Origin: an uncultured Methanosarcinales archaeon
Lineage (GTDB): Archaea; Nanobdellota; Nanobdellia; Woesearchaeales; CAZYIM01
Length of the DNA stretch: 31,490 bases
Direction: 5' to 3'
Assembly: GCA_964647565.1 (NCBI GenBank)
Contig: CAZYIM010000033.1
Location: forward strand, 1 to 31,490
Shown here: piece by piece, positions 1,974-26,959 of the stretch
How the letters are laid out: every line of letters begins with the position of its first letter
How positions within the stretch are numbered: position 1 is the first letter of the stretch
Translations under genes and position numbers: made by a program
Notes under the pieces: model-generated
What the model was told of the DNA's origin: nothing
What the model saw: only the letters and a program-made list of their open reading frames with translations
Database searches by the model: none

Positions 1974-1995
1974 GTATTTATGGAGGAAATAACAA

Positions 1996-2448
1996 ATGAA
2001 ACTATTGGAACCAGAACTACAAAACAAGTTGGAAACAACTATAAAAGGCCTGTTTAGGAGGTCTAGTTATATGTTTTTTATTGCAGGAAGCCAACATGAA
2101 GTTATAGAGTATCTTAATAAGGCTTACTCTGAAATACATGCAGAGCCGCCTAAGTTGCTCGGATTTGAGTGGAGCAAAGAAAATCCTGATGGTAATGAAA
2201 ATATTAATTGCTATGTCCTTATTAAAGAGAAAACTGTTGAACAGAAAAAAAAGGACATAAAAGTTAATGATCCTGATTTTTCCATAAGTATAAACTCCAA
2301 AGAGGATCATGAGATTTTGTTAAGAATTGAGCTTGATAGATGTACAGATGTGGGTGCTTTCACAAATTTTTACAGATCCAACTATCTATTGGCCAACAAA
2401 TTGACACAGTATTGCAGGGAAGATGCCAAGCAAGAGGTCCAAAAGTAA
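1996..2448 (+). CDS. Hypothetical protein
   Basis: 150-aa ORF with a GGAGG SD about 10 nt upstream, co-oriented with its neighbours. Confidence 0.7.
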   Translation: MKLLEPELQNKLETTIKGLFRRSSYMFFIAGSQHEVIEYLNKAYSEIHAEPPKLLGFEWSKENPDGNENINCYVLIKEKTVEQKKKDIKVNDPDFSISINSKEDHEILLRIELDRCTDVGAFTNFYRSNYLLANKLTQYCREDAKQEVQK

Positions 2449-2535
2449 TTTCACCATCTTCGAGGGGTGAACCCCGCAATATTTATAAAGCCGATAGTAT
2501 TACTTTTCTTTATTATTTATTGACCAGGTGGTACT

Positions 2536-4173
2536 ATGAAATTTGGAAAATCATTGTTATTGTTATTAACAGGACTTTCTGTGTCCTTTCTAAACAGATG
2601 CAGCTCTCCAACTCATGGATTGGAGTATAATTTTAAAAAGAACAAGCAGTATGCTCATACTGAACTAGAAGCAGAATCCAAGAGCCTGCATAGGACAACG
2701 CCCTACAGGACCAGCATACAGGAATTCTGGGCCAAGAGAGCATCTTTCTTAAGCAAATTGAAGAATCATTACGCTGCTCTTCCTGACACAGCCAATCATG
2801 AGACTCTGGCAGAGATTGCAGATAAAGCATGGGAATATCATGATGCTGAAGCCTGGGGTCAGCATTCGTCGCATGTAGCTGTAAAGAGCAATAATCTCCA
2901 GCATGTTATTTCAGATAAAACTGGTGAACCTTTATGCATGGCAACCCTTATGAACCTGCAAGGCAACAATAAAGGTGATGAGGATAAGTTGCATTTTGCT
3001 TATAATTTGGATAAAGAGGGAAGAAGATTCTATATTGAATCATTCATTGATATGGGCTCCTTGGAAACCTTTGGGCATGCAATGTGCTTTTCTAAGTACA
3101 ATACGAAAATGGATGAAAAACTTAGTGGAGCAGAAGCCAGGACTTTGGTCAATAAGGCAATCGCAGCCTATCAGAATGATAGAATCAGATCAGAAGAGTT
3201 GGCCATCATTGAGGATATCGAGAAATTTGTCAAGAGACAAAAAATAGAAAATGAAGATCAGATAACTCACTGGGAAAGATTAAAATTTGACTTGGAACAA
3301 AGGGCAGGTTATAAGATGCTTAGCGATCTTGGTATTGTTATAGATGACACGTCTGCTAACAAAAGGTTTAAAGCTTTGATTGAATTGGAAAAATCTGTCG
3401 ACATAATACCTTCTGAATGGTATAAACTTGTTTCAGGCAAATCTAATCCTAAAAAACCTTTTGGTGGAGAGTTAATAGTTAATGAGGATCTTGAAGATGT
3501 GGCTGTGTGGGTAAAAATCATTAATAGTACTAATAATACAAGAGATGCTGATATCAACTTTGGAATTTCAGCTGCTGACTCACTCTTGAATTATCTAAAA
3601 TCCGAGATTGATTCAGCTCCACAAATTAAAGCACAAATAATTGCAACAATTGATTTATTTTCTAATAGTAAGTCGTTCTTTGAGTTTGTAGACTATAAAG
3701 GCAACCCAGTCACAATAAATGGTTATTCATCAGATGATGAAAGTGTGCCAGTCTCACATAAGAGGTTTTTGACTGAAGTTTACAATCATGGTGCAAACGA
3801 TAAAGGTCTAGTTGATAATCTGGTTTTTATAACAGGTTATTCTGCACAGAAATACGAGGGTGTATCTGGGGAATCTGAGTTTCTGATTGATTTTAAAGCA
3901 ACATATTATTTTAATAAAGAGGTGGATTTGGAACTTGAGTATAACATGCTCTTGGACAAGCCAGGCAATGGAAACAAAGACTTAAGAGTACAGTTGGCCA
4001 TACCTGCATTAACATCCGAACAGCAAAAAAGGTTTGTCTATAATCTTATTGAGTCTGCTTATCAGCAAAATATCACACAGACACAACATACCCTGGCTGA
4101 TTTTAAAAACAAGGCGATGGAAACCCAAGCTACCAAAGATCATATGAGAAAGATCATCAATATTCTTGAATAA
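2536..4173 (+). CDS. Hypothetical secreted/lipoprotein-like protein
   Basis: 545 aa. Basic-hydrophobic N-terminus ending LNRC. TATA-like TTTATAAA near 2482 and AGGTGG SD. Confidence 0.75.
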   Translation: MKFGKSLLLLLTGLSVSFLNRCSSPTHGLEYNFKKNKQYAHTELEAESKSLHRTTPYRTSIQEFWAKRASFLSKLKNHYAALPDTANHETLAEIADKAWEYHDAEAWGQHSSHVAVKSNNLQHVISDKTGEPLCMATLMNLQGNNKGDEDKLHFAYNLDKEGRRFYIESFIDMGSLETFGHAMCFSKYNTKMDEKLSGAEARTLVNKAIAAYQNDRIRSEELAIIEDIEKFVKRQKIENEDQITHWERLKFDLEQRAGYKMLSDLGIVIDDTSANKRFKALIELEKSVDIIPSEWYKLVSGKSNPKKPFGGELIVNEDLEDVAVWVKIINSTNNTRDADINFGISAADSLLNYLKSEIDSAPQIKAQIIATIDLFSNSKSFFEFVDYKGNPVTINGYSSDDESVPVSHKRFLTEVYNHGANDKGLVDNLVFITGYSAQKYEGVSGESEFLIDFKATYYFNKEVDLELEYNMLLDKPGNGNKDLRVQLAIPALTSEQQKRFVYNLIESAYQQNITQTQHTLADFKNKAMETQATKDHMRKIINILE

Positions 4174-4182
4174 GGTGAACTT

Positions 4183-5865
4183 ATGAAAAAATATATTGCG
4201 CCGCTTGTTTTGTTGGGAGGTATTGTTGCTTCGTATTTTTCAGGCTGTGGTAATATTAATAATAGTCATGGTAACGAATACAAACCAATCATTGAGAGGC
4301 AAAACCAAAGACGTGCTCTTAAGGTTGAGTTGGGAACGCTGAATACTGTGCCTAAGGCCAGGGATGATATCTTCATAGGATCTACACCTGAGCCAGAGAA
4401 GAATATCCTGGAGAAGATGCAGAATAATATTTCAATTTTGCAGAAGAATAATGATTTCTACACATCTGTTCCAGATTCATTACATGAGATCAGTGTTGAT
4501 GAGATGATTAGTTTCTTAATAGAAAATGGAAGGAGAATGCCTCCTGCTGGATTAATATATACCTATAATTTAAAGGATTCAAATGCTGTTAATATTGGTA
4601 CTATCAACATGTATGATTATAGACCTAACAATCAGGATTATAAGGATCATCTTAATCTTGACTCAAGACTGATTGTGGAAGATGATAGATATATAATTAA
4701 TGTTAATATTGGTTCGGATTCATTGCAGCTTTCAGGAGATATCTGGAATAATAGGACTGATCAAAAAGACTTCCTGCCATATCAGGATTGCAAGATAATC
4801 GCTGATAAGTTTTTCAGGGAATTTAAGGCCATGTTGTTGCGTAAGAATGTTGATGGTCGGCAGAGCCAATTGGACAAATGCCTGCAAATATTCAACAATT
4901 GGAAAGGGATGTATGATAGATATGGAGCGATGAAAGACAACCTTCAAGCTCACGTGCAAAATGAGTTCTTATCTAATTTCCATATTGACAGTACGGCTGT
5001 TCTTCCAGAAAATATCAGCAGCTTTTATTCTTCCAAATTGGTCAGAGAAGATTTTTCCAACTGGTTTCAAGCTATTGATAATGCCAAAACAGTTAAGGTT
5101 GATACAAGCCAGAAAACAATCAATATTCTTAGAGATGGTAGGGATGCTGCTTCATATCTTGAGAAGAAGTTCTGGTCGGCGATGAATGCAACTGGAAATG
5201 ACTCTGCAGTATGTTTCCATAAGATACAGTTACTCTATGATTATGTCTCCTCAAAAGGAGAGTTGGTGACATCGATATCTAAAATGGGACGGCCTGGTTC
5301 AAGCATAAAAAAGGTTTCAAACAAGGCTCATAAGGTCTTTGTCAGCGATAGCTTGAGGACTGATTTTTTGTCCTGTTTCGAGATCAGATTCAATTATTCA
5401 ACTGATATGCTGAGTACTAAACCTGAGGGACTTACCTTTAGTTCCAATATCGAAAATTCAGCATATGGCCTTGAATATTGGGTGAGATACCAGGCTCACT
5501 TTCCCTTATCTGGAAAGAAAAAGATCGAGTTTGACAACCAGATAAGGTTTAGGCCAGAAGAGATTATTGACGCAAAGATTGAGCCTTCCATTGTACAAAA
5601 ACCTCTCGAAATAGTTCTTGATCAAAAGCAGCAGGACATAATGGTGGTAAACCATCTGGATGCTGCAATTGAGATAATCAGGAGTGACCTCTATAACAGT
5701 TTCTTGCAGTTCATGAACACAGAGATCAAGTCTGGTCTGATAAGGGAGGACGCCCTGGTTGGGATTCGTAAGGAACAGGCACGCAAGGCTAAAGAACAGG
5801 CTCAGAAGGATATTGAGGGTAAGAAGAGACGTAAGAAAGTGCTTGATCGCTTCAAGAAGAAATAA
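4183..5865 (+). CDS. Hypothetical lipoprotein-like protein
   Basis: 560 aa. Signal peptide with lipobox-like FSGC; AGGTGA SD; 9-nt gap from the previous gene. Confidence 0.75.
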   Translation: MKKYIAPLVLLGGIVASYFSGCGNINNSHGNEYKPIIERQNQRRALKVELGTLNTVPKARDDIFIGSTPEPEKNILEKMQNNISILQKNNDFYTSVPDSLHEISVDEMISFLIENGRRMPPAGLIYTYNLKDSNAVNIGTINMYDYRPNNQDYKDHLNLDSRLIVEDDRYIINVNIGSDSLQLSGDIWNNRTDQKDFLPYQDCKIIADKFFREFKAMLLRKNVDGRQSQLDKCLQIFNNWKGMYDRYGAMKDNLQAHVQNEFLSNFHIDSTAVLPENISSFYSSKLVREDFSNWFQAIDNAKTVKVDTSQKTINILRDGRDAASYLEKKFWSAMNATGNDSAVCFHKIQLLYDYVSSKGELVTSISKMGRPGSSIKKVSNKAHKVFVSDSLRTDFLSCFEIRFNYSTDMLSTKPEGLTFSSNIENSAYGLEYWVRYQAHFPLSGKKKIEFDNQIRFRPEEIIDAKIEPSIVQKPLEIVLDQKQQDIMVVNHLDAAIEIIRSDLYNSFLQFMNTEIKSGLIREDALVGIRKEQARKAKEQAQKDIEGKKRRKKVLDRFKKK

Positions 5866-5866
5866 G

Positions 5867-6223
5867 TCACTTCTTATATCTGAATTTCTTATTGTATTCT
5901 TTATGATTAAAAATTTCGATTACAAAGCAGATTATCTCGATCTGGTCTCCTTTGATGGTATAGAGCATTCTCCAATGGTTGGATAATTTGACACGCCAAA
6001 GGTTGTTTACTTGATATTCTTCAGGAATCTTCTTTTTTTCAATTTGAGTGCCGTAGAAAGGATTGGATTTCATGAAAGATACTTTTTGCCTGATTGAATT
6101 CATTAATTGTATTTCCTTACTTTTTTTAATACCTTTTTCCTGTTGTTGGGATACCTTTTCTTTTAGATATGTGAATATAATTTTTGCTTGGCCAATAGCT
6201 TCAATTTTGACTGATTTTATCAT
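5867..6223 (-). CDS. RelE/ParE-superfamily toxin-like protein
   Basis: 118-aa basic protein with NPFYG...LWRVKLSNHWRMLYTI...VIEIFNHKEY, the RelE-type beta-sheet signature. Confidence 0.65.
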   Translation of the reverse strand: MIKSVKIEAIGQAKIIFTYLKEKVSQQQEKGIKKSKEIQLMNSIRQKVSFMKSNPFYGTQIEKKKIPEEYQVNNLWRVKLSNHWRMLYTIKGDQIEIICFVIEIFNHKEYNKKFRYKK

Positions 6224-6284
6224 TACTTGATTTATTAGAAACTGGTTAATAAAAATAACCTAATAGTTTTTGGAAAGAATCCGT

Positions 6285-6560
6285 TTACATCTCTATGCCT
6301 TCCCTTTTCAGTCTTTCCAATTCCTCTCTTGGAGTGTAGATCCATAGAATACCCTTGGTACCGATCAGTATCTTTCCGCTGATCTGCAGATAGTCCAGGA
6401 TCTGGATTAATGTCTGGTGCATCACTTTTTTGGGCAATGTTTTTTTTAGTTTTGCGAGAGTGATTAGGTCTGTATTTTTCAAAGTATCTTCAACCATTAC
6501 AATAGTCTTAAGAGTTGGAGAATGCTGAGATTTTTTCAATAGTTGTGCTGTTTTTGTCAT
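6285..6560 (-). CDS. Small winged-HTH protein, putative antitoxin/regulator of the RelE-like gene
   Basis: wHTH-like pattern (TLAKLKKTLP...TLIQILDYLQISGKILIG) directly upstream of the toxin-like gene. ATG at 6560 preferred over TTG at 6572 because a TATAAATA box lies at 6588-6581. Confidence 0.6.
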   Translation of the reverse strand: MTKTAQLLKKSQHSPTLKTIVMVEDTLKNTDLITLAKLKKTLPKKVMHQTLIQILDYLQISGKILIGTKGILWIYTPREELERLKREGIEM

Positions 6561-6571
6561 TTTTATACTCA

Positions 6572-6608
6572 ATTAATATATATTTATATCTGATGAGTAT
6601 ATATTAAT
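6572..6608. promoter_or_regulatory. Inverted repeat overlapping the TATA box of the wHTH/RelE operon, putative operator
   Basis: ATTAATATATA (6572-6582) and TATATATTAAT (6598-6608) form a perfect 11-bp inverted repeat. It is AT-only, so chance is possible. Confidence 0.4.
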
Positions 6609-8990: not shown

Positions 8991-11045
8991 CTAGCTTTTC
9001 ATTATCCTTATAATTGCTATTATCACTAGAAGCACGATAATCTCAGTCCCAAAAAGTATGAGCAATGAAGAGTTCTTCTCAAAAAAGCTCTTTTTTGGTG
9101 AATAGCTGTGGTAAACTGGTGTCTTTATTTTTTGATCTGCTGTTGTAAAACCTGTTGCTTTGTTTGTGCTCTCTGGTTCTTTTTGTTCTTCTGCTTTTTC
9201 TGCGCACTTTTCAATTGTTATTTGGAGATTTTCTTCTATGTGCTCCTTGAAATCAGCTGAGACAACAAGATTATAGTTTCCTGTTATGCTTTTTGAGGTT
9301 GCAAACTGGATAGTTTTCCAGCTGGTGGAATCGTCTTTATCATCGCCTTCTTCAAGAAAAATGTTCTCTGTTTTCTGCGTGCCTAGTTCTGGAATCTGGA
9401 TTGTCAATGCTATATTTTCATCTTCTTTTCCAATATTTGCAACACCTACTAATATCTTTATTTGCTTTCCTGAACAGATCTTTTCCTCTTCAAGTTCAAT
9501 CAACAGGAATTCCACATCATGTCTTTCTTTGTTTATCTCCAGCTCATATTCAAGAGAAATCTCTTGTGATATTCCTTTGTTGGTTGTGCCTTCAATAAGC
9601 AATTTAATATCATAGTCTCCATCTTCAAGAATGAGGGGCAGTTCTATTGATATTTTCTCTTCGTCTTCTTCTCCTATATCTAGGTCTTTGAAGTCTGCTT
9701 TTTCTTCAAGGCCATTTTTGATATCATCGATCGTGATTTCCATTTCAATGTCTTCTACTGTCAGATCAGTTTCAAACTGCTCATCGTTCATTATGCTTAC
9801 ATCGAATTGGATAGTTGAACCAGGTCCTGCTTCTATCTGTCCGCCAGTTTCATCGGCATCTTTTTGTCTTTTGTTGTCAACCCTAATAGTCACATCTTTT
9901 ACTTTTAGCGGGTTGCATAACTCTTCAAATGAATGATGGACTGGCTTGTCGCCGTATTCTCCATAATTCAGTCCTATTACATCTCCCTCTTCTGCGCAAT
10001 AATGCCCTTCAAAAGAGAGAAGATCTTTGTTCCAGCAGGAGGAACCTCCATCGAATCCGACTGGCAGATATTCCCAGCTTTGACCTTTGCTTTTAAAAAA
10101 GCCCCAGTATTTTCCTGAGTATTCACAATAATCTCCATTTGCTTCATCTCCAAATCCGTTTATCATGCAGAGTTGATGGCCGAATGCAGATGGTCCTGCC
10201 CATTCTAGATCAAGGTCTGTTTTTGAAAGTGTTTGGTATCCGTCACTGTTGTCTGATATGTCCAGACAGTCAACAGACACTGCTCCGCTTGGAAGCTCAA
10301 CAACAACGCCTATTGTTGCTGCTTGTGAAAATGGAATAAGGAAAAGAAGTGCAACTATTGTAGTTGTTGTTTTGATAGCTTTGGTTTTTTCCTTAAGTTT
10401 TGAGATGAGCTTTTCGCATATCTCTTTCTCATTGAACCTGCCTGTTTTGTACACAAGACCTTTGATCTTGGGCAGCAACAGTCCGAATGTGGCATTGGAC
10501 ACCAAATGGATACCTATGAAAGGCAATGCTGATGCAAACGATACAAGTATGCCAAAACCAAAGAAAAATCCTGATGATACGTTCATAGCTGTCTCAAAGA
10601 AGAGAGTTGCAGATATCATTGCAGCAACTGTTATGAATTTGCCTCTTCTGTCTTTTATGACACCTCCAAGAAAACCTGCAAATGCCCCTGCCAGGATGTG
10701 TATCAAAGACCAGGGTCCTTGTCCTCCAAACATGAAAAAATTTGAAAGGAACCAGCTGGATGCTCCTGTTATTGCGCCTTTCTTGGATCCGAATAGCATG
10801 CCAGCCAGTATGGCAAAGAATGTGATTGGCTCTACACTTGGTGCCCATTGCAGGAGCGAGCGTCCTATCACTCCTCCGATCATCAGCACTACCATCACCA
10901 GGACCTCTTCCATCTCCAGAAGCAGTTTCTGTTTTTGCAGAGATCGCAGTGCTACTTTGTGTTTTGAGCTAAGAACTATCTTTTGTTCTTCTTTTGTCTT
11001 AGATTTCTGTTTTTTCTTTGTTTTCAGCTTGAGTTTTTGAGCCAT
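8991..11045 (-). CDS. ECF-type S component (CbrT-like, cobalamin) fused to a DUF4430/transcobalamin-like domain, Ig-like domains and a C-terminal membrane anchor
   Basis: aa ~45-195: S-component motifs (PSVEPITFFAILAGMLFG, SNFFMFGGQGPWS, HLVSNATF). aa ~245-370: FGHQLCMINGFG...YWGFF...EGDVIGLNY. Then acidic beta-sandwich repeats and a terminal TM helix. Lies downstream of a cobalamin riboswitch. Confidence 0.75.
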   Translation of the reverse strand: MAQKLKLKTKKKQKSKTKEEQKIVLSSKHKVALRSLQKQKLLLEMEEVLVMVVLMIGGVIGRSLLQWAPSVEPITFFAILAGMLFGSKKGAITGASSWFLSNFFMFGGQGPWSLIHILAGAFAGFLGGVIKDRRGKFITVAAMISATLFFETAMNVSSGFFFGFGILVSFASALPFIGIHLVSNATFGLLLPKIKGLVYKTGRFNEKEICEKLISKLKEKTKAIKTTTTIVALLFLIPFSQAATIGVVVELPSGAVSVDCLDISDNSDGYQTLSKTDLDLEWAGPSAFGHQLCMINGFGDEANGDYCEYSGKYWGFFKSKGQSWEYLPVGFDGGSSCWNKDLLSFEGHYCAEEGDVIGLNYGEYGDKPVHHSFEELCNPLKVKDVTIRVDNKRQKDADETGGQIEAGPGSTIQFDVSIMNDEQFETDLTVEDIEMEITIDDIKNGLEEKADFKDLDIGEEDEEKISIELPLILEDGDYDIKLLIEGTTNKGISQEISLEYELEINKERHDVEFLLIELEEEKICSGKQIKILVGVANIGKEDENIALTIQIPELGTQKTENIFLEEGDDKDDSTSWKTIQFATSKSITGNYNLVVSADFKEHIEENLQITIEKCAEKAEEQKEPESTNKATGFTTADQKIKTPVYHSYSPKKSFFEKNSSLLILFGTEIIVLLVIIAIIRIMKS

Positions 11046-11140
11046 TCTGGCACCTCTTGAACTTTTTCAAGATAAGTGCCTCTAGAAAATAGAGATATTT
11101 GTCTGAACACAGAAGATGCTTTTTTGCTTTTTCTTATCAT
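11024..11140 (-). CDS. Possible 38-aa leader ORF between the riboswitch and the transporter
   Basis: ATG at 11140 preceded by GAGGA. Encodes MIRKSKKASSVFRQISLFSRGTYLEKVQEVPEWLKNSS and overlaps the transporter start by 22 nt. Not in the ORF track. Confidence 0.35.
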   Translation of the reverse strand: MIRKSKKASSVFRQISLFSRGTYLEKVQEVPEWLKNSS

Positions 11141-11141
11141 C

Positions 11142-11243
11142 TTGGATAATCCTCGATCCTATCTGGTCCAAGCAAGCGTTCCGACTTTACGGCTGCGGGT
11201 CAGTGAGGGAATTTCACCCTACTTTCCTTACCTCGATGCTATT
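11142..11243 (-). promoter_or_regulatory. Cobalamin riboswitch (compact class II/AdoCbl-variant-like)
   Basis: Minus strand reads AGCATCGAGGTAAGGAAAGTAGGGTGAAATTCCCTCACTGACCCGCAGCCGTAAAGTCGGAACGCTTGCT: GGAA junction, GGGTGAAATTCCC T-loop hairpin, CTG-CCCGCA-CxGTAA core, AGTCGGA B12-box-like segment and AGCA/TGCT closing stem. A TATTAAAA box lies about 27 nt upstream. Confidence 0.85.
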
Positions 11244-11351
11244 TAGAAAATTCTTCTTGTTTTAATACTTTTTGGAAATTATTTAGAGACTCAAATTGTA
11301 GCAATCCTTAAATAATGGGGGAACGCAAAAAAATAATTTTTTCTTTTTTTT

Positions 11352-12137
11352 CTATTGATTGAACGAATACTTTACACCCATTAAAAAACCCAGTCTGTTC
11401 CATCTGTCTTTAGGAATTTGGGGTAGTTTTTCGTATTTCCAGTTTATCCCTATCTGCATGTCAACCCTGTGCTGCGCCTTTTCCTTGTCTTTTTCTGATT
11501 GGGTCCTATAGATGTTGACGTTGATATTTGCATCAAAAAAAATGACTGGATTCTTAAAATCCTCAATCGGAAACCTAAGATCTGCTTTTTCGTTGAACGA
11601 GACCTTTTTTCCTTTCTTAGCATGTGACAAAACAATGGTGGTAATGCTCTGATCAATCCATGAACCGTCTTTTTTAATCCATTTAGCTCCAAAGCCCAAG
11701 CTGGTGTTCAAGACCCATATAGGCACATCCATTCCGCCTGTTATATATCTTGTATCCGCAGTGGCCCTGTCGTCGATATAATTGCCTTCAAGAAAACCTT
11801 TCATCTTCCATATTTTCTTGAAATTGATCTTGTAATCAATCCTTCTTAGATCCCTTTTAATTTCTTGTTGCTGGTTTCTTGCGCGGATGAAATCATATTC
11901 AAGACCTATATGATGCTCTAGAATCTTTTGATCATAACTCAATCTTAACAATAATCTGTTCTGCAAAATCTCATATTTGCTGAAGGCTTCCTTTACAGAA
12001 AACATCTCTTCAATACTGTATTTGATTGGGAGTTTCTTGACTTCTTCTTTTTTCTTTTCTTGAGAAATAGCAGGGCTGCCAGTGGCTAGATATAGAGGTA
12101 GTATTATTGCTAAGAGTCCTTTCCTAATCTTGTTCAT
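11352..12137 (-). CDS. Secreted hypothetical protein with alternating beta-strands (beta-barrel/DUF481-like)
   Basis: True start is probably ATG 12137 (ATGA overlap with the dph5 stop), giving signal peptide MNKIRKGLLAIILPLYLATGSPAIS. C-terminus LMGVKYSFNQ. Confidence 0.6.
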   Translation of the reverse strand: MNKIRKGLLAIILPLYLATGSPAISQEKKKEEVKKLPIKYSIEEMFSVKEAFSKYEILQNRLLLRLSYDQKILEHHIGLEYDFIRARNQQQEIKRDLRRIDYKINFKKIWKMKGFLEGNYIDDRATADTRYITGGMDVPIWVLNTSLGFGAKWIKKDGSWIDQSITTIVLSHAKKGKKVSFNEKADLRFPIEDFKNPVIFFDANINVNIYRTQSEKDKEKAQHRVDMQIGINWKYEKLPQIPKDRWNRLGFLMGVKYSFNQ

Positions 12138-12883
12138 TTCCAGTTCTCTAACATCTCTTCTTCCATGAAATGTAGATTGCCTGGTATGACTAGGCAATGC
12201 AATGGTTTGCCAAAGTCAAACTCCATAAGTTCAGAGACCTTGCTATATTTTATCTTAAAGTCTCCTCCGATCCTGGCGCAGCCCACAACCATGGAATCTG
12301 GTTTTAATAACTCTTCACCTCTCTTTTTTTCGACATTAAGTAGGAATTCGAGAGCTTCCCTAACAGTCATGTATTTATCTTGATCAGATTTTATATCCAA
12401 TAATAGTAATGTATGCAATCCTAGGCTCTTGTTGGCCTTTATGACATCATACGGGCTCTCAACATTTTCATTATCAAATGGAATAGAAGTGGTCTTTCCG
12501 AACTTGTATAGTTCCAGACCTGTTATGCCGATGGCATTAAGGATGGATGCATTGTTGATGATTTGAATTTTGATATTTTTCTTTTTTGCCCTTTGGTAAA
12601 GATCTGTATGAGTGGTCGCTCCAAAGATATCCCCTATTACTAGAAAGCAGACATCATTATCTTTTGCATTCTCCAGTATCTGATCAGCTTTATTCTCTAC
12701 AAGATCCCTGTCTGCCAGAATGATCTTCTTTCCATAGAAATGCTCTAGCTTTTCAACAGGGCATGCTAATTTAGAGGTATATGCTTCGAGATAGATATGA
12801 TGGCTGTTCCTCACAGCTTCAAGCCCCTTCATAGTTATGTCTTGTTCATCGTTTAGGCCTATACCTATCATAAAAAGAACCAT
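12134..12883 (-). CDS. dph5: Diphthine synthase
   Basis: LFMIGIGL..EQDITMKGLEA, YLEAYTS, GDIFGATTH, NASILNAIG.TGLELYKFGKTTS, GLHTLLLLDI, DFGKPLHCLVIPG. Confidence 0.97.
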   Translation of the reverse strand: MVLFMIGIGLNDEQDITMKGLEAVRNSHHIYLEAYTSKLACPVEKLEHFYGKKIILADRDLVENKADQILENAKDNDVCFLVIGDIFGATTHTDLYQRAKKKNIKIQIINNASILNAIGITGLELYKFGKTTSIPFDNENVESPYDVIKANKSLGLHTLLLLDIKSDQDKYMTVREALEFLLNVEKKRGEELLKPDSMVVGCARIGGDFKIKYSKVSELMEFDFGKPLHCLVIPGNLHFMEEEMLENWK

Positions 12884-12901
12884 TATATTAGAATTGGTTG
12901 T

Positions 12902-13789
12902 TTATTTATTAAGCTTCTGGAAAATCAGAAGGTCTTCTGTGGTCAGCTTCTCGCCTTTTTTCATCTTCTCATCAAGTTCAACAGACTTTTGTTTGAGAGT
13001 TTTCTTTTTGTGCTCTTTTTTGTCTTCTTCTATCTCAACATTTAGGGACTTGAGCTGTTTTCTGATATCATTAAGTTCTTCAAGCTTGCCTTTTAGCTCC
13101 TTATTGAGTTCGACAAAGCGCTCTTTTTGTTCTAAGAATTTTTGATAAAGTTCATCCTCTTTTTTCTTGAGGTCATCCACTGTTTTAGAACCGTCTAGAA
13201 GTTCCTCATGAAAGCCCTGACTCTCCTTTGCTATCTGCTGGATCTGTTTGTGGATCTTGTTTGAGTCTTTCCTTATCTTATCCCTGTCACGAGTCTTTTT
13301 CTTGACTTGGTCCAGAAGCTCGCCAACATCCTTTACAGCGTTATACTTGACCCGGATTCTCTTGATCTCTTTTCGTATCTTCTGTTCTTTTTCAAAAGAC
13401 ATAGGCTGGGTTTCGATATTGAACTCCATCCTTTCAATGTTTTTCTTGAGTTCAGCGGGCCTTTCTGTTATGCCCTTTTCCTTGAGCAGGACCTGGTACT
13501 TGTCCTTGGCTTCTTTTGCTTCGTCGCTGAGCTTCTTGATCTTGTCATTGAGCACATCCCTTTCTTCCTTTAGTGCTTTTACATCCTTACTCAAATCATT
13601 TCTTCTCTTCTTTGAATCCTTGACTCCTGAGATATGTTCAACTATCTGTTTACTTACGGCATCCTTTTTCTTGAACCAGGCCTCTTTTTCTACATTTACC
13701 TGGTTGAGTTTGGATCGGATTTCATCTATCTCTTTTTCCTTTTCCTTAAGTTTGGCAACAAGTGCCTTTATTTCAGAGTCAACAGTCAT
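12902..13789 (-). CDS. Conserved archaeal coiled-coil protein (COG1340-like)
   Basis: All-helical, K/E-rich 295 aa with IERMEFNIETQPMSFEKEQK and terminal KMKKGEKLTTEDLLIFQ. Confidence 0.8.
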   Translation of the reverse strand: MTVDSEIKALVAKLKEKEKEIDEIRSKLNQVNVEKEAWFKKKDAVSKQIVEHISGVKDSKKRRNDLSKDVKALKEERDVLNDKIKKLSDEAKEAKDKYQVLLKEKGITERPAELKKNIERMEFNIETQPMSFEKEQKIRKEIKRIRVKYNAVKDVGELLDQVKKKTRDRDKIRKDSNKIHKQIQQIAKESQGFHEELLDGSKTVDDLKKKEDELYQKFLEQKERFVELNKELKGKLEELNDIRKQLKSLNVEIEEDKKEHKKKTLKQKSVELDEKMKKGEKLTTEDLLIFQKLNK

Positions 13790-13829
13790 ATTGTAGTCAC
13801 ACTCATATTTTCAATAAAAACAAAAAAAT

Positions 13830-14150
13830 TTATCCGAATAGAGCTCCTAGTCCGGCAGCAGCAGATTCTTCCTGCTTCTTCTCCTCTTCAGGTGATGCTT
13901 CTTCTTTCTTTTCTGCTTTTGGAGCGTCTCCACCTTCTGCAGGTGCGGGTGCTGCGGCAGCTGCTGGAGCAGCTACAACTGCATTCTTAAGCGCTTCATC
14001 TATATCTACACCATCAAGGGCTGCAACTAGAGCCTTTACTCTTCCATCGTCGACTTTTACGCCGGCAGCCTCAAGGACCTTCTTTACAGAAGCCTCTTCT
14101 ACTTTTTGACCAGCCTTATGTAAAAGCATTGCTGCGTATATATATTCCAT
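13830..14150 (-). CDS. rpl12: 50S ribosomal stalk protein P1 (L12p)
   Basis: [11 protein letters not shown], Ala-rich hinge, acidic tail ending GLGALFG. Confidence 0.98.
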
Positions 14151-16682: not shown

Positions 16683-18194
16683 TTACTTCTTTTGATATCT
16701 TTTTAATATTTTTACTGTTCCGCTTATACCATCCACTTCTATAAAATCTCCATCTTTTAGTACAAGTGTGGCTATCTTGGTGGCGACAATTGCAGGGATC
16801 TTGGCCTCTCTTGCAAGGGTGGCTGAATGTGATGTTATGCCTGTGCCTCCATTGCAGACCAGGCCGATTGCCTTAACAAAGACAGGAGCATAATTAGGCC
16901 CCAGCTGACTGGTCACAACTATATCTCCTTTTTTCACCTTGTCCATCTCATCCAGGTCTAAAACTAGTCTTACAGGGCCCTTGACAACACCTGCTGAAAC
17001 TGGAACTCCTTTAAATTCGTCAACATTCTTTTTGATTAAGACCACTTTATTGAAGAGTTTCTCTGCTCTTTTACCCAGGATGATCTCAGTTTTGCCTTTC
17101 GAAGTATTAAAAGCAGAACACTTAATCCTTTGTTTTAACTCTTTTTTAAAATTAGCATCCTTGAAAACTTGTGGAATATCATCGACCATTAAGTGTCTTG
17201 CTTCCTTCATGGTTATCTTGCATCTTTTGCAGATTTCTTTTAGGATAACATCAAAATAATGCAAGGATAAGGATGTATAAGTCTTCCTGAGTTCCTTGAT
17301 GTAGATACCCTCTCTCATTTCCGAGAACCAGTTGGCGTGATCGTGATCAATATTTGCTTCTTTTATTATTTTCTTGATATCACTCTCATGGTTCTTTATG
17401 ACTGCCTGAAGCTTTTCAAGCTGTGCAAGCGGGTTGTTCTTAAGAAGATGGGCCATCCTTTCTATGAAATCAGAATATGTGAGCACGTCATCATCATAAT
17501 CTCGAGTTATCCAAAAGAAATTGCTGGTGTGTTTTTTGAACAGATTGTTTAATTTTGTATCCTTGCGGATTAATTGCTCAGTTTTCTTGTCTTTGAAATA
17601 TGCTTTCCATTTTTTACTGTTTTCGATTTTCTTTGCCAGCTTAAGTGCTGCCAGTTTTTCTGTATTGATTATCTGTGCCCTGGGTTCGGTTGTCAATATG
17701 GTGAAGTATCTTGCTGCAGTCTCTTCATTAGGAGTTTTGGTTTTCAGATACAACCTAAGAATTCTTATCAGTCCGGGTTCAAAATCATTGATCATAAAAT
17801 AATTGGCATAGAGCTGCTTATAATGTCCGATAAACTCATTATAAGCCTGAACTATCTCTGCCTGTGTGAATTTTGAGATGTCTTCTCTTGCAAGCTGTTT
17901 TGCCCAGCTGATATAAGTATCGCCAATCTTCTTGACCTTCAGAGCCTGCTTGTGGAAGAAGTGTGGTTGTTTGAATAATTTCTTGAAGATATGGTTCTGG
18001 ATTCGCTTACCATCTTTTGTACTCCAAAATAAATATCCTACTGGGAACTTGAATAATAGTAAGATTTGCTTGTAGCTCGTACCAACAATCTTTTTATAAT
18101 CTTGGGTCAAGCTTTGCATAGAATAGACATTAGGATGTGGACTAATCCTTTGCCTGGAAGATACATTTTCCCAATCGACATCCTCTGCCTTCAT
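16683..18194 (-). CDS. PEP-utilising enzyme mobile (phosphohistidine swivel) domain protein with a large helical N-terminal domain
   Basis: C-terminal FKGVPVSAGVVKGPVRLV...GTGITSHSATLAREAKIPAIV...GDFIEVDG. No ATP-grasp or TIM-barrel domain recognisable. Confidence 0.9.
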   Translation of the reverse strand: MKAEDVDWENVSSRQRISPHPNVYSMQSLTQDYKKIVGTSYKQILLLFKFPVGYLFWSTKDGKRIQNHIFKKLFKQPHFFHKQALKVKKIGDTYISWAKQLAREDISKFTQAEIVQAYNEFIGHYKQLYANYFMINDFEPGLIRILRLYLKTKTPNEETAARYFTILTTEPRAQIINTEKLAALKLAKKIENSKKWKAYFKDKKTEQLIRKDTKLNNLFKKHTSNFFWITRDYDDDVLTYSDFIERMAHLLKNNPLAQLEKLQAVIKNHESDIKKIIKEANIDHDHANWFSEMREGIYIKELRKTYTSLSLHYFDVILKEICKRCKITMKEARHLMVDDIPQVFKDANFKKELKQRIKCSAFNTSKGKTEIILGKRAEKLFNKVVLIKKNVDEFKGVPVSAGVVKGPVRLVLDLDEMDKVKKGDIVVTSQLGPNYAPVFVKAIGLVCNGGTGITSHSATLAREAKIPAIVATKIATLVLKDGDFIEVDGISGTVKILKRYQKK

Positions 18195-18790
18195 GTTTTA
18201 TACACCTTATTGAAATCCTTCTTGAATTGGCTGAAGTTCTTATAAAGAATGGTATGCACCCCAAGCTCTCTTGCAGCTTCTAAGTTTGAATCCTGATCAT
18301 CTATATATATGACCTCTGCTGGCTTGACATTGAACTTCTTGAAGATATATCTCATGGTTTTTTTACTGGCTTTAGCCAAATTTATTTCCCAGGTATTGAT
18401 TACTGTATGGAAAAGCTTTTTGTAGCCGAGCTTCTTGTCAGTATCATACATCTGGCTACGTGTGTTCTTGCTGAGTAAGAGTGTGGTTGTTTTCTTAGAT
18501 TTGTTCTTGATGAAATTGACCATTGGAGGATTAAATCTTATGAAGCGGTAATGGATATCTCTGACTTGCTTTCCGTTGATATGCAATCCAGTCTCTTTTG
18601 CTCCTTTTTCCCATGCGTCTGCTTGTGTCATCTTTCGAGTTGCTGCCATATTAAAATACTTGGTATAAAAGACTGCATATAGGTCTTTCCAATTGCGTTT
18701 GAATCTCTTTGCCAGGGCTTGCATGGTTTCTGGGAAACCTCCTAGAAGCGTTACTCCATATGCATCAAAAATCACTAGTTTGGTTTTCAT
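18191..18790 (-). CDS. HAD-superfamily hydrolase
   Basis: Motif I LVIFDAYGV, motif II LLSKN, motif III K (LAKA), motif IV YIDDQDSNLEAARELG. Confidence 0.85.
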   Translation of the reverse strand: MKTKLVIFDAYGVTLLGGFPETMQALAKRFKRNWKDLYAVFYTKYFNMAATRKMTQADAWEKGAKETGLHINGKQVRDIHYRFIRFNPPMVNFIKNKSKKTTTLLLSKNTRSQMYDTDKKLGYKKLFHTVINTWEINLAKASKKTMRYIFKKFNVKPAEVIYIDDQDSNLEAARELGVHTILYKNFSQFKKDFNKVYKT

Positions 18791-20220
18791 TTGCTCACCT
18801 TCCTTACTATTCCTTTTTCCGCGTTAACCTCAATCACGTCTCCATCTTTTAATATCTTGGTGCAATTGCCAGTGCCGACAATACAGGGTTTTTTCAATTC
18901 CCTTGCAACAACAGCGGCATGTGATGTCACGCCGCCTTCTTCTGTCACAAAGGCAGCTGCTCTGTGCATTTCATGGGTGAAGTCTGGCATGGTGGTCTTC
19001 GCAACCAGGACATTGCCTTTTTTAACCTTGCTAAGATCCTCTTTAGACAGAACCAGAACCACTCTTCCCTTTATTTTTCCTTTGAACGCGATCATGCCCT
19101 TGATCTGCTTGTTCTTTTCTTGGGAGTTCTTTATCATTTTGATGGCCAGTTTGATAGTTGCAGCATCATGTAAAATAGTGACTTTATTGTTTTCAAAATA
19201 ATAGATGTAGTCCTGCTTAACTCTTTGTTGCACATCTTTGTAGTTGGGCAGGTTGCCTTTCTTGATGAAATCCATCAGCTCACTATGAAGTAGATTTGCT
19301 GTCATCTTTTCAGGCCAGTTTTTGCCAGAGGTTTTGGACATCTCATCAGCTATCTTGTATAATAGGCCTCTTGCCTTTGCCTGGCATCTCTTGAAATGGT
19401 CGATCCTGTCAGTACGTAAGAAGGTATATGCATGAATGATCTCAGCTAAAAGTCTTAGGTCAGGATTATGAAGCTGCTTTCTTAACTTTGCATAGTTGTT
19501 CCTATTCTTTTCAACCTCTTTTTTCATTCTCTTTATTTCTTCTCTGGCTGATTTCTTGTCAAGCTTTCTGATCTCTTTTTCAAAATATCTCTGATCCAAT
19601 AAAGGTTCAACAAACGAATACTCATTATACCAATAGAAATCTTTTGTGAGCTGATTGAGATTTTTCTTTGTTATGTTGTTTTGTATTGCAGACTCTGCAA
19701 TCCTCAGTCTCATCTTCTGGAAATCATTAAGTCTTGAAGGTGAGCAGATGATATTGAATGCCTGATCTGCTTTTTGTCCTAATTCTTTTTCTAGTAACTG
19801 TCTGAGTTCCTGGTCAAGCACTGCTTCAATTGCAAATGGCATCGCAATATTGTCTGCAAAAAGAATATTTGCATCGATCCAATCTTGGAGAATAGATTCA
19901 CATTTCTTTAGAGGTAATTTGGCGCAGGCTTTGGCGTTGTCTCCTGCCTTATGCATAGCCTTGACTGCCAGCTTATAGTCTTTAAGATGTTTTTTCCAGC
20001 CTTTGACAGTCCTGATCTTATTTGCCAGCCTGTTTAAGCTTTTTGCAGCATCGGATTGTTCCCAATAGATCGATCTAACTCCTTTTTTTAAGGGTGCAGA
20101 TGCAATCCTTATATTGTGCACCTGCCCAAAAAAGATCTTTGCCAGCTCATCCCTATGGACAGTGACTGGTCTTGTAGCAAGGATTGAAAGATTACTGAAA
20201 AATGGAGGGATCAGTTTCAT
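18787..20220 (-). CDS. PEP-utilising enzyme mobile domain protein
   Basis: C-terminal VLVAKTTMPD...TEEGGVTSHAAVVARELKKPCIVG...GDVIEVNA. Confidence 0.9.
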   Translation of the reverse strand: MKLIPPFFSNLSILATRPVTVHRDELAKIFFGQVHNIRIASAPLKKGVRSIYWEQSDAAKSLNRLANKIRTVKGWKKHLKDYKLAVKAMHKAGDNAKACAKLPLKKCESILQDWIDANILFADNIAMPFAIEAVLDQELRQLLEKELGQKADQAFNIICSPSRLNDFQKMRLRIAESAIQNNITKKNLNQLTKDFYWYNEYSFVEPLLDQRYFEKEIRKLDKKSAREEIKRMKKEVEKNRNNYAKLRKQLHNPDLRLLAEIIHAYTFLRTDRIDHFKRCQAKARGLLYKIADEMSKTSGKNWPEKMTANLLHSELMDFIKKGNLPNYKDVQQRVKQDYIYYFENNKVTILHDAATIKLAIKMIKNSQEKNKQIKGMIAFKGKIKGRVVLVLSKEDLSKVKKGNVLVAKTTMPDFTHEMHRAAAFVTEEGGVTSHAAVVARELKKPCIVGTGNCTKILKDGDVIEVNAEKGIVRKVSK

Positions 20221-21242
20221 TTTATTTTAATTATAATTCCTTTGTCTGCGTCGACTTCTACCATGTCTCCGTTACGTAGGAATTCTGTTGCAAACTTGGT
20301 GCCGATTATGCAGGGCTTGCCGAGTTCTCTGGCCACAACAGCTGCATGGCAGGTAATGCCGCCTTCATCAGTTACGATGGCTGCTGCTTTTTCCATAGCA
20401 GGTACAAAGTCGGGAGTAGTCATAGTCGAGATAAGTATTTCTCCGTCCTCCAGCTCTGTAATCTGGGATTTTTTCCTTAGGATTCTAACTTTACCCTTTG
20501 CCATTCCCTTGTTGGCAATCTGGCCTTTAAGAATTCCGCTCTTTAGGATTTCTTCTGGTATGTCTTCGAAGAGGAACTTATATTCAGGATGCTGCTTCTG
20601 GAATTCTTTAAGATCCATGAGTTCCATCTCTTGACCAGGGATAAAGATACAGTTTTTCATCCTTGCTTCTAACACAGGCCTTTCTGGCACTGCATCCAGA
20701 TCATTTAAAGTGACAACCAATTCCATGCCCTCTGCTCTTGGAAAAAGGCGGGATATGGTTTTCTTGATGATCTTTTCGCAGTCATCATAGAACGAGTCAA
20801 CCTTCCTTATCTGCATGGCCATTTCCCTAATGTCTTTAGGAGTTCTTTCATCATAAGAGCTATAATAAAAGATGACAAAGTGTCTTGAACCTAAGAACAG
20901 GAATTCTATGAACTCCTTGAGCTCTTGAATAGAATCAAGTACGCCCTTTATCTTGTATTGCTCGAGCTTTTCAAGGATTTTCATATAGGTCTGGACATGC
21001 ATCTTATAGAAGTCTTGTCCTTCCCTGTTCTTTTCCAGGAGTTTGTCAAAGAACCATTTGTAGGCCTTGTCACAGTCCCATATTTCTGTGGCTCCATTGT
21101 TGACAAAATAGATATTGGGTGGGTTGAAAGGATTCAGTTCCCCTATAGCCTTCTCAAATCCCTCTAGATGTGCATAGCTCCAGGATTCCTGTAGGATCAG
21201 GCCGTTATCCCTTGTGTATTTCTTGTTATATATGAGTGTCAT
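20217..21242 (-). CDS. PEP-utilising enzyme mobile domain protein
   Basis: C-terminal ILISTMTTPDF...TDEGGITCHAAVVARELGKPCIIG...GDMVEVDA. Confidence 0.9.
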   Translation of the reverse strand: MTLIYNKKYTRDNGLILQESWSYAHLEGFEKAIGELNPFNPPNIYFVNNGATEIWDCDKAYKWFFDKLLEKNREGQDFYKMHVQTYMKILEKLEQYKIKGVLDSIQELKEFIEFLFLGSRHFVIFYYSSYDERTPKDIREMAMQIRKVDSFYDDCEKIIKKTISRLFPRAEGMELVVTLNDLDAVPERPVLEARMKNCIFIPGQEMELMDLKEFQKQHPEYKFLFEDIPEEILKSGILKGQIANKGMAKGKVRILRKKSQITELEDGEILISTMTTPDFVPAMEKAAAIVTDEGGITCHAAVVARELGKPCIIGTKFATEFLRNGDMVEVDADKGIIIKIK

Positions 21243-22327
21243 TCTAGCTTCCTCACAATACCTTTGTTAGCATCTACCTCAACCAAGTCTCCATCCTTTA
21301 AAACCTTTGTTGCGAATTTAGTGCCGATTATGCAGGGTTTTTCAAATTCCCTTGCCATGATGGCTGCATGGCTTAATATGCCTCCTTCATCTGTGACAAT
21401 ACCTTTGCTTTGTTTCATCAAAGGGACATTCTTAGCTACTGTCATTGGTGCGACAAGAATGAATCCTCTAGTTTTGGGTTTATTGCCGGATACCAGGTTG
21501 TATACCCTTCCTTTGACAATTCCAGGATATGCAATTTTACCTTTCAGGATGCTTGTTTCTTTATTTTCAATATCAAAGCACTTTTGTTTGATATCTTTGA
21601 TGATCTTTTTATCAGTAAATACATTTTCATCCTTCTTCTTTTCCCATGTGCACAAGTAGAGATATTCCTCTTTTCTTTTTTTAAGTGTCTCAAGCTGATT
21701 TTTAGATATTTTTTGGGTTTTTAGGAATGCTTTTATCTCATCAAGGGTACAGTATCTCAGCAAAAATCCTTCAAAATGCTTTTGCTTTCCAATCAGTATA
21801 GAGCATTTGTCCAAAATAGCTTCTGTCCTTGAATAGAGCAGGGCAATAGTATTTCTTTCATTACCAATTCGCTTCATCATTCGCTTGTCAACAAGGCTTT
21901 CCTTAGTATGGTTAAAATACCTTAAGAAGCAGTTATACAAGCCCAGAATGGTCACATATTGGCTGTAGTTGGCTGTAACGACTTTCATGCATTGCAAGGG
22001 ATTTTTTTCGATCAAATCTTCGATTTTGTCTATTTTTGATTTGATTTTTTCAAATTTTTCCATACTGGGTATTAGAAAATCTTTTGCAAGAGTCTTAAGT
22101 TTTTTTTGTATGATTTTGCCAAGGTCTTTTGCGATTCGTTTCTCGTTTAATAGAGTATAAAACCAGCCATTGGAGCCGATTGCACCTACAGCGCCCCATG
22201 AGATGTTATATTCTTTTTTCATGCCTTGGGTATATGCCTCACCAACAACGCTCAAAACAAGCATAGGCTGATTTCTTTGGCTAGCAGCTTTAAGTCCATG
22301 ATTTTCGATAATCTTGATTATGTCCAT
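21239..22327 (-). CDS. PEP-utilising enzyme mobile domain protein
   Basis: C-terminal ILVAPMT...TDEGGILSHAAIMAREFEKPCIIG...GDLVEVDA. Confidence 0.9.
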   Translation of the reverse strand: MDIIKIIENHGLKAASQRNQPMLVLSVVGEAYTQGMKKEYNISWGAVGAIGSNGWFYTLLNEKRIAKDLGKIIQKKLKTLAKDFLIPSMEKFEKIKSKIDKIEDLIEKNPLQCMKVVTANYSQYVTILGLYNCFLRYFNHTKESLVDKRMMKRIGNERNTIALLYSRTEAILDKCSILIGKQKHFEGFLLRYCTLDEIKAFLKTQKISKNQLETLKKRKEEYLYLCTWEKKKDENVFTDKKIIKDIKQKCFDIENKETSILKGKIAYPGIVKGRVYNLVSGNKPKTRGFILVAPMTVAKNVPLMKQSKGIVTDEGGILSHAAIMAREFEKPCIIGTKFATKVLKDGDLVEVDANKGIVRKLE

Positions 22328-26868: not shown

Positions 26869-26959
26869 GCGTAAGCCTTGAGTGATATTTTTCACTTTGG
26901 AAAAATACCTGGTTAGCCGGTTCCTTCGGGAATTCCCAGTTCAAATCTGGGCGGTGGCG
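26823..26959 (+). tRNA. tRNA-Ser(UGA) with two introns (26853-26874 at position 29/30; 26883-26914 at position 37/38)
   Basis: Acceptor GCCACTG/CGGTGGC with discriminator G; D arm GCA..GGT..TGC; spliced anticodon arm CCGGC-CTTGAGA-GCCGG; long variable arm TTCC-TTCG-GGAA; T arm CCCAG-TTCAAAT-CTGGG. Confidence 0.92.

Follow-up and report, generated by a model that had tools for sequence, protein, structure and literature searches.

The subject of this work is the leader of a single gene in a 31,490-nucleotide (nt) stretch of DNA (contig CAZYIM010000033.1, hereafter the window) from the genome of an uncultured archaeon of the Woesearchaeota type, within DPANN. The gene (8991-11045, minus strand) encodes a fusion protein of 684 amino acids (aa), which homology, profile and structure comparison relate to proteins of vitamin B12 (cobalamin) uptake. 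The leader in front of it carries, on the same strand, an archaeal-type promoter, a cobalamin aptamer, a small hairpin with a Shine-Dalgarno (SD)-like loop, and a putative leader open reading frame (ORF) that contains a further hairpin. In bacteria, few riboswitch classes are as widespread as the cobalamin ones, and riboswitches are rare in Archaea.

Aptamer, helices and kissing loop

A scan of the window against Rfam 15 (cmscan) returned a single match at or above the gathering score, i.e. the AdoCbl-II (adenosylcobalamin-II) model RF01689 at 11248-11166(-), aligned over its full length (model positions 1-81 of 81) with 45.5 bits against a cut-off of 36.5 and an E-value of 4.7e-8. It was also the only RF01689 match in the whole 2.68-Mb genome of 86 contigs. 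At the same site, the class-I model RF00174 reached 23.6 bits, which is below its cut-off of 31.5. The original prediction, made from the letters alone, had described a compact B12 aptamer at this site and had proposed a comparison with the Rfam cobalamin models by Infernal; the outcome confirms the aptamer and places it in class II. A model of the lineage itself (R1, comprising aptamer and P13, and built from 14 archaeal leaders) matches 11241-11143(-) with 84.5 bits, an interval nearly identical to the 11142-11243 predicted originally.

The core motifs of the cobalamin aptamer, GGAAAG, GUGAAAUUCC, CUGACCCGCAG and CCGUAAAGUCGGAA, are all present on the minus strand and are followed in the 3' direction by GGAUCGAGGAUUAUCC, then AAG and then an ATG at 11140. 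According to the R1 alignment and the pair counts, the aptamer core (11233-11170) is closed by helix P1 (AGGUAAG, 11233-11227, with CUUGCUU, 11176-11170) and holds P4, P5 and P6 with the conserved CCGUAAAGUCGGAA. The L5 loop ACCCG (11200-11196) was recognised as a kissing-loop partner by its complementarity to L13, the loop of the next hairpin. This hairpin, P13 (11159-11144), was defined by covariation and pairs GGAU (11159-11156) with AUCC (11147-11144) around L13 CGAGGAUU (11155-11148), within which the SD-like GAGGA occupies 11154-11150. From P1 to P13 the element spans 90 nt (11233-11144) and has no large peripheral extension, and it therefore belongs to class II and not to class I. The minimum free energy (MFE) fold of the window sequence (RNAfold) recovers P1, P4, P6 and P13. 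Among the 14 matches of an order-wide scan, the aptamer of the window has the third-highest score and keeps all of the invariant columns.

For the analysis of covariation, 50 matches were aligned to R1, giving 48 distinct sequences. Pairs were counted on this model-fitted alignment (A4), with explicit parsing of the kissing loop, because the MAFFT alignments (A2 and A3) misplace the variable P13 region. Standard pairs occupied 84.0% of the cells, compared with 70.4 +/- 0.7 for shuffles (none of 500 reached 84.0%), it being understood that a model-fitted alignment favours the structure in such counts. The covariation score was 0.289 versus 0.092 in shuffles (0/500), and in a control in which the 3' partners were slid, pairing fell to 30-42.5%. 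Two-sided changes were seen in six of the eight pairs of P1, in all five of P4, in one of three of P5 and in all four of P13, where 85.5% of cells were paired; P6 is invariant and hence uninformative. When the 26 distinct archaeal-type rows were taken alone, 86.5% of cells paired, with two-sided changes in P4, P5 (GC in 23 rows, CG in 3) and P13, and each pair of P13 was formed in 21-24 of 24 rows. Covariation in related archaea, which had been proposed as a further check, is thus present.

The small hairpin with GAGGA in its loop was part of the original prediction and stands, but in another register. The GATA/TATC stem proposed there can be drawn and overlaps P13; it was rejected in favour of GGAU/AUCC with the loop CGAGGAUU, since this stem is conserved and covaries in 24 of the 26 distinct relatives with letters at P13, and since RNAfold selects the same register.

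In the window, L5 is complementary to C11155, G11154, G11152 and G11151 of L13, with A11153 bulged. With L5 written as n1-n5 and L13 as m1 m2 (bulge) m3 m4 m5, the informative position is n2:m4, which is Watson-Crick in 45 of the 46 distinct sequences that have a CGnGnn site, a single bulged nucleotide separating the paired blocks. Three types of pair occur at this position: C:G in 24 sequences, which constitute the archaeal type (ACCCG or GCCCG with CG-W-GG), G:C in two sequences of one genus (loci L004 and L008; L numbers denote the loci of our collection), and U:A in 19 sequences, which are bacterial-type metagenome loci (GUCCG with CG-A-GAC). The computations show that the L5-L13 kissing loop, which the original prediction had postulated, and the helices P1, P4, P5 and P13 are supported by covariation, in the case of the kissing loop by compensatory changes.

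Archaeal setting, recurrence and regulated genes

The promoter of the leader (11275-11260, minus strand) was identified from its sequence and from the spacing in relatives. It consists of the TATA-like octamer TATTAAAA (11267-11260) preceded by the purine-rich run CCAAAAAG (11275-11268), which resembles a B recognition element (BRE). An octamer that fits TTTWWAWA at 8/8 positions is found in 22 of 27 related leaders, in most cases as TTTTTATA or TTTATATA, and its distance upstream of the first G of GGAAAG is 23-36 nt (median 28). In the window this distance is 32 nt by hand count, the automatic picker having taken a wrong octamer for the window, L008 and L006. No sigma-70-like promoter, terminator-like site or oligo-U was found in 10900-11400. 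The usual archaeal spacing from the end of the TATA box to the transcription start is 22-27 nt. With this spacing, the transcript would start 0-5 nt before P1 (11233), so the outermost Rfam helix (11248-11243) is probably not transcribed. Both the TATA box and the start position agree with the original prediction, which had placed the aptamer at the predicted start of an archaeal promoter.

The aptamer was then sought in related genomes. RF01689 matches with E <= 0.001 were found in 5 of 61 sampled genomes of the same order, three of them over the cut-off, and in 12 of 151, eight over the cut-off; this genome is included in both counts, and the 151 genomes are a sample of a larger order. In a phylum-wide sample, 4 of 151 genomes had a match, all of them in the same order and none outside it. 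Among 57 loci collected through the downstream protein, 11 carry the aptamer upstream of the transporter gene and on its strand (E <= 0.01), nine over the cut-off, and R1 revealed no diverged aptamer in the other 46 (E <= 0.01; a few of these with less than 300 nt upstream). As only those 11 of the 57 transporter loci (L015-L071) carry the riboswitch, the switch is often gained or lost within the order.

A CbrT/DUF6580-like transporter gene follows the aptamer in the window and in L002/L006, L003, L004, L008-L011, L017, L049, L058, L066 and L070, the orthologues being DUF6580/ECF (energy-coupling factor) S-component-like membrane proteins with E-values of 2.1e-10 to 2.3e-8. Other genes behind aptamers in relatives encode a DUF4430 lipoprotein (4.9e-11), a cysteine-rich secreted protein and, in L007, the ATP:corrinoid adenosyltransferase CobA/BtuR (1.2e-43). 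Genome G049 has tandem switches, with two genes that each have an aptamer of their own in front and a distance of about 780 nt between the aptamers. Computation thus shows that the aptamer recurs before B12 genes in Woesearchaeota relatives, which extends the class to Archaea.

Several proteins without a Pfam family are encoded directly behind aptamers. One, of 155-175 aa, precedes the transporter in L002 (944-1471, minus strand), L004 (1646-2116, plus strand) and L008, with the ORF 42-54 nt after the aptamer, and is a candidate for a new B12-related protein. Two large, open-ended proteins (>480 aa; L005, 191-1678, and L012, 1614-3067) and a 93-aa membrane protein (L014, 1165-1446, minus strand) follow archaeal-type aptamers.

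The class has been described from bacteria and marine metagenomes (PMC2864571), the contamination estimate of the bin is 1.85%, and odd low-support joints lie beside the 5' edge of the aptamer in two runs. It could be argued on these grounds that bacterial DNA was mis-assembled or mis-binned into an archaeal genome. We consider this extremely improbable, and it is already largely refuted by the surroundings of the element. The same 31-kb contig encodes ribosomal proteins L1, L10/P0 with the archaeal-eukaryotic RL10P insertion domain and a 60S-acidic-type L12, in addition to NFACT and a diphthine-synthase-like methylase, and the genome carries an archaeal 16S rRNA (1405 bits) that ends with GGAUCACCUCCU. 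A per-run contig of 1,958 nt covers 9789-11746 with 0 differences and bridges the transporter gene, the leader and the upstream gene, and the contig of a second run, from another study, covers 10666-11732 without differences, the source of both being marine/seawater DNA. These independent contigs do not show the bacterial chimera that the original prediction had named as its refutation. The promoter is of the archaeal TATA type, with the sigma-70 site missing from the interval given above. Furthermore, the leader type is present in 11 other genomes of the order and before the 11 transporter genes mentioned, all archaea-titled; indeed, 57/57 of the loci found via the downstream protein are titled Woesearchaeota, Nanoarchaeota/Nanoarchaeia, Nanobdellati or 'archaeon', some of them 'uncultured Methanosarcinales'. 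The bacterial-type members that the same pattern search retrieved have a different promoter, L5, L13 and platform. The archaeal nature of the genome, as originally assumed, is well supported by these data, and to judge from sequence comparison the element is very probably a real, conserved class-II cobalamin riboswitch in an archaeon.

The joints themselves (11249-12063) were found in low-depth contigs of runs X3 and X4. Position 12062 is connected back to 11249 through 25 other letters, contigs end loosely at 11328 and 12063, and the sequence jumps from 11350 to 13898. These irregularities suggest that the upstream gene (281 aa) has been rearranged between strains, right at the 5' edge of the aptamer and promoter.

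The 684-aa protein encoded downstream is composed of an N-terminal CbrT/DUF6580-like S-component (approximately 47-191), a transcobalamin-beta/DUF4430-like ectodomain (approximately 245-390), a weak CARDB-like region and a C-terminal membrane anchor. Its orthologues (40-46% identity) pass the DUF6580 cut-off with 34.9-44.1 bits. A profile of the N-terminal domain together with three orthologues has as its best PDB chain 6fnp_A (E 1e-4, 145 positions), which is annotated just as 'Membrane protein' and which we take to be ECF-CbrT. The ectodomain has no Pfam match. With a separate secreted protein encoded in the operon of the relatives it shares 34% identity (E 3e-23), and its relation to the DUF4430 proteins of the relatives is weak (hhalign probability 59.9%, E 8.8e-5). 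A structural model of the ectodomain (pLDDT 78.5) gave transcobalamin, intrinsic factor, haptocorrin and the DUF4430 structure 3u7z as the 19 best Foldseek PDB rows; the E-values are weak (6e-3 to 8.5e-2, the next rows starting from E 0.8), and the model suggests a transcobalamin-like fold at that strength.

Solitary S-component-like transporters such as BtuM work alone, and by analogy the 684-aa protein may do so as well. In this genome, which is 86.9% complete, no match was found to EcfT (PF02361, CbiQ/EcfT), to CobA/BtuR, to a PduO-type adenosyltransferase or to the large subunit of class I/II ribonucleotide reductase (RNR), and there is one DUF6580 gene. The B12-binding domain PF02310 is matched 31 times in the genome, mostly in frames of 440-540 aa and often several per contig (C12, C17, C35 and others); the one such protein scanned against Pfam (L073:1432-2763, where L073 is C35:7771-11115) also carries Radical_SAM. 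The 31 matches, the single DUF6580 gene and the failure to find EcfT, an adenosyltransferase or class I-II RNR fit a B12 scavenger with a single regulated uptake gene. For a DPANN-type genome of 2.7 Mb with a single B12 transporter gene, 31 PF02310 matches are an unusually large set.

Read-out in the relatives and in the window

A pattern scan of metagenomes yielded 44 loci. Promoter and platform are of the archaeal type in ten of them, two being duplicates of loci already collected. In most of the remaining 34, sigma-70-like promoters are combined with the U:A type of kissing loop, and the 3' strand of P13 contains an SD that precedes the ATG by a few nt; a few of the 34 have a different loop type or an unrecognisable L13. 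The archaeal type reads GGAU-CG-W-GGAG-nn-GUCC, followed by a variable loop and then by GGAU-UU-CUC(U). In the MFE fold of 22 of 27 related leaders, the L13 GGAG and GUCC pair with the downstream GGAU-UU-CUC strand, and the resulting hairpin, H2, is mutually exclusive with P13 and the kissing loop. Its stems are left in place by whole-hairpin insertions in the loop (L049, L097 and L104). The 3' strand of H2 resembles the 3' tail of 16S rRNA and ends 9-15 nt before the ATG in 15 of 19 measurable leaders, and most AUGs downstream of this strand have no SD of their own. As modelled by folding, the platform of the relatives is bistable. A three-part 'anti-SD release' model was also tried for the relatives and found unsupported: in 17 leaders, the unpaired probability at -14..+5 around the start did not change consistently between free folding and folding with P13 forced and L13 blocked.

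In the window, L13 and the 3' strand of P13 (GAGGAUUAUCC) form a bipartite match to the 16S 3' tail of the genome, with a pairing energy of -10.0 kcal/mol (the median over 27 leaders is -10.7 kcal/mol). Of 2,114 ORF-upstream 16-mers, 9.9% pair equally well, so the loop called SD-like in the original prediction is comparable to the best ~10% of real gene starts. SD sequences are in use in this genome, with GGAGG, GAGGT, AGGTG and GGTGA enriched 8-9-fold at -16..-6.

The original prediction also had the element precede a CbrT-like transporter. A CbrT/DUF6580-like gene is indeed downstream, at a distance, but the immediate SD-AUG pair is not that of the transporter: it opens a putative leader ORF of 38 codons (11140-11024, minus strand; ATG 11140, TGA 11026-11024), read by translation of the sequence. 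The ORF begins 9 nt downstream of GAGGA and runs, in a different frame, 22 nt into the transporter gene. The start of the transporter at 11045 is fixed by homology (MAQKLKL..., as in L070), its ATG lying 121 nt downstream of the Rfam match. The same spacing between L13 and an ATG is found in five other leaders; in three the ATG opens an in-frame N-terminal extension, and in two a short ORF that ends at or over the main ATG. The idea that L13 is the SD of a nearby start in all relatives was rejected, as the ATG is in place in only 6 of 26.

Wholly inside the leader ORF, at 11080-11049(-), lies the hairpin GGCACU-UA-UCUUGAA-AAAG-UUCAAGA-GGUGCC, detected by folding against shuffles, in which the transporter SD GAGGUG (11056-11051) is buried. 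Its energy is -16.3 kcal/mol for 11085-11030 (z -2.39), and the same hairpin is present in the MFE and centroid folds of the whole leader.

Based on these observations, the following circuit can be proposed. Transcription would begin a few nt before P1, about 22-27 nt past the TATA box. With B12 bound, L5 would pair with L13 (CG-A-GG, 11155-11151, A11153 bulged) and lock P13, whose loop and 3' strand would serve as the ribosome-binding site (RBS) of the leader ORF. Without translation of the leader, the 11080-11049 hairpin would keep the transporter SD buried and the 684-aa fusion would not be made. At low B12, the kissing loop would open, ribosomes translating the leader ORF would unfold the hairpin, and initiation at 11045 would follow.

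Several results weigh against this interpretation. The window is one of the 5 leaders out of 27 without H2; it lacks the H2 3' strand, and its read-out is thus atypical and has no comparative backing. In the constrained folding of 17 related leaders described above, accessibility of the start site did not differ consistently between the two states. The enrichment of ATGs 7-12 nt after the L13 GG is weak, with 6 of 26 related leaders against 2.9 expected (P 0.059). The leader ORF could be fortuitous, as the chance of a 38-codon open frame in AT-rich DNA is estimated at roughly 8%, and the SD-burying hairpin is moderately better than shuffles, 6 of 200 being as stable. The transcription start on which the scheme depends is a predicted one. 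The protein of the window stays below the Pfam cut-offs, with 23.9 bits for DUF6580 (5.6e-5; cut-off 27) and 19.5 bits for ECF_trnsprt (1e-3; cut-off 30.7). Finally, the folding energy of aptamer plus P13 is no better than that of shuffles (z +0.63), and that of the whole leader is unremarkable (z -0.66). Single-sequence energy being uninformative, it is the covariance-model score and the covariation, and not stability, that identify the element.

A functional aptamer might act otherwise than by translation coupled to the leader ORF, e.g. through RNA stability, premature termination (by RNase or aCPSF1/FttA on an exposed U/C-rich strand) or long-range pairing at the transporter start, and the leader ORF would then be fortuitous. 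This is suggested by H2, a hairpin of 22 of 27 related leaders that is incompatible with P13 and the kissing loop, whose stems survive insertions in the loop, and whose strand is mostly positioned 9-15 nt before AUGs that for the greater part have no SD of their own; state-constrained folding without consistent occlusion of the start points in the same direction. In env8, mechanisms acting on mRNA abundance add to translational control, as Polaski et al. report (PMC5028336). The window, however, lacks the H2 3' strand as well as any oligo-U or terminator-like site in 10900-11400, and it has instead a canonical SD-9 nt-AUG arrangement inside a kissing-loop hairpin, as in the bacterial class-II paradigm; a role for aCPSF1/FttA or RNase belongs to the general background of archaeal biology and is not a result of this analysis. 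On balance we regard an output of this kind as unlikely. Still less probable, in our opinion, is that the sequence is an evolutionary relic, intact in itself, whose read-out has decayed through loss of the H2 strand and an insertion of ~95 nt between P13 and the transporter start, leaving the gene no longer regulated by B12. The platform of the window is unlike that of 22 of 27 relatives, and in L070, whose protein has the most similar N-terminus (MAQKLKL... in both), the AUG follows the aptamer at 49 nt, as opposed to 120 nt in the window. As only 11 of 57 transporter loci keep the riboswitch, loss is common. Decay is nevertheless difficult to reconcile with an aptamer that scores third highest of the 14 order-wide matches and keeps every invariant column, with P13, L13 and L5 that are still mutually complementary, and with an SD-AUG spacing and a downstream SD-burying hairpin that form a coherent circuit.

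Having weighed these alternatives, we find it rather probable that the 5' leader of this Woesearchaeota-type B12-uptake gene holds a genuine class-II (AdoCbl-II or 'AdoCbl-variant') cobalamin riboswitch that operates by the proposed leader-ORF mechanism. As read from the sequence, B12 uptake in this genome is probably repressed at translation, via an SD-bearing kissing-loop hairpin and a leader ORF, our confidence in the circuit as drawn falling a little short of even. For the family, we tentatively put forward, with some doubt, that Woesearchaeota possess their own lineage of class-II cobalamin riboswitches, with archaeal signals and a read-out undescribed in bacterial members. In such a lineage P13 would contain an extended SD (GGAG-nn-GUCC), the downstream strand GGAU-uu-CUC would mimic the 16S tail GGAU-cac-CUCC and form H2, and B12 would pick the fold. 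The window would represent a derived form, in which H2 has been replaced by a leader ORF coupled to a hidden transporter SD.

Relation to known systems and meaning of the switch

The closest known system is the env8/class-II group (RF01689) of marine bacteria and metagenomes. It shares with the window the covariance model, a compact four-way-junction aptamer without a large peripheral domain, and the L5-L13 kissing loop with a bulged L13 nucleotide. In its bacterial loci the SD is likewise in or next to L13, with the start codon a few nt after P13 (PMC5028336). According to Polaski et al., unpaired L13 nucleotides interrupt the kissing loop in env8 and the AdoCbl-variant family, the loop of the hairpin that presents L13 holds the RBS, and a bulged L13 nucleotide is a hallmark of the class. 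The taxa of AdoCbl-variant are given as 'Marine' in Table 1 of Weinberg et al. 2010 (PMC2864571). The window differs from env8/class-II in its archaeal host and BRE/TATA promoter in place of sigma-70, and in an SD that resides in the loop and the 3' strand as a bipartite match to the 16S tail, the regulated start being presumably that of the leader ORF. The archaeal type has a C:G pair (ACCCG with CG-W-GG) where env8 and the bacterial class-II members have U:A (GUCCG with CG-A-GAC). Most archaeal relatives also have the additional competing hairpin H2, and none was seen in the bacterial-type loci.

Class-I cobalamin riboswitches (RF00174), e.g. the E. coli btuB leader, belong with the window to clan CL00101 and share the ligand family, the kissing-loop logic and the association with B12 uptake genes. 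The window is set apart from them by a score under the class-I cut-off (23.6 versus 31.5 bits) and by the missing peripheral extension. The fluoride riboswitch of Thermococcus kodakarensis and the other archaeal classes are, like the window, bacterial-type classes in archaeal genomes, with a different ligand and fold. At the protein level, CbrT (6FNP) and BtuM resemble the product of the window in the S-component-like N-terminal domain, with DUF6580 and ECF S-component Pfam matches; the latter differs from CbrT in its fusion to a transcobalamin-beta-like ectodomain and a C-terminal anchor, and no EcfT was found in the 86.9%-complete genome.

The riboswitch classes listed for Archaea in the part of McCown et al. 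2017 at hand (PMC5473149) are thiamine pyrophosphate (TPP), fluoride, flavin mononucleotide (FMN), Mg2+-I and guanidine-II, and cobalamin is not listed there; nor does it appear in the archaeal list quoted in the accessible part of PMC8281238. Fluoride is described as the only experimentally determined archaeal riboswitch (PMC8241225). In the full-text literature, i.e. openly readable main texts without supplements, we found no published report of a cobalamin riboswitch in Archaea or DPANN.

Some other features of the window deserve mention. At 27-5865(+) there are three consecutive large ORFs (648, 545 and 560 aa) without a Pfam family, the second and third with lipoprotein-like signal sequences. 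They are followed at 5867-6572(-) by a small two-gene pair that may be a toxin-antitoxin module, the second product having a weak ParE-like toxin match (3.4e-4, below the cut-off). The region 16683-22327(-) contains four tandem paralogues (503, 477, 341 and 362 aa), in which the Pfam match is confined to a C-terminal PEP (phosphoenolpyruvate)-utilising 'mobile' domain (1.4e-16 to 6.4e-27), and a HAD (haloacid dehalogenase) hydrolase gene is situated between the first two. A possible mobile-element remnant at 26206-29250(+) encodes a TraG/HerA-type P-loop ATPase, a LAGLIDADG-like protein and a 167-aa fragment that weakly matches an integrase N-terminal SAM-like domain. The G+C content falls to 0.30 at 26-27 kb.

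The leader described here belongs to a cobalamin class that is set in archaeal promoters, has its own kissing-loop pair type and read-out, and occurs in 12 of 151 sampled genomes of one DPANN order. It represents a candidate for a natural ligand-responsive element in archaea that is open to testing, and constitutes direct genomic evidence that some Woesearchaeota sense and scavenge B12. The regulon moreover flags B12-related proteins without a family, i.e. the 155-175-aa protein, the two large proteins and the 93-aa membrane protein. If the archaeal lineage with H2 is real, it would provide the first ligand-controlled handle on the regulation of translation initiation or factor-dependent termination in DPANN, and B12 scavenging would be a regulated trait of these symbionts.

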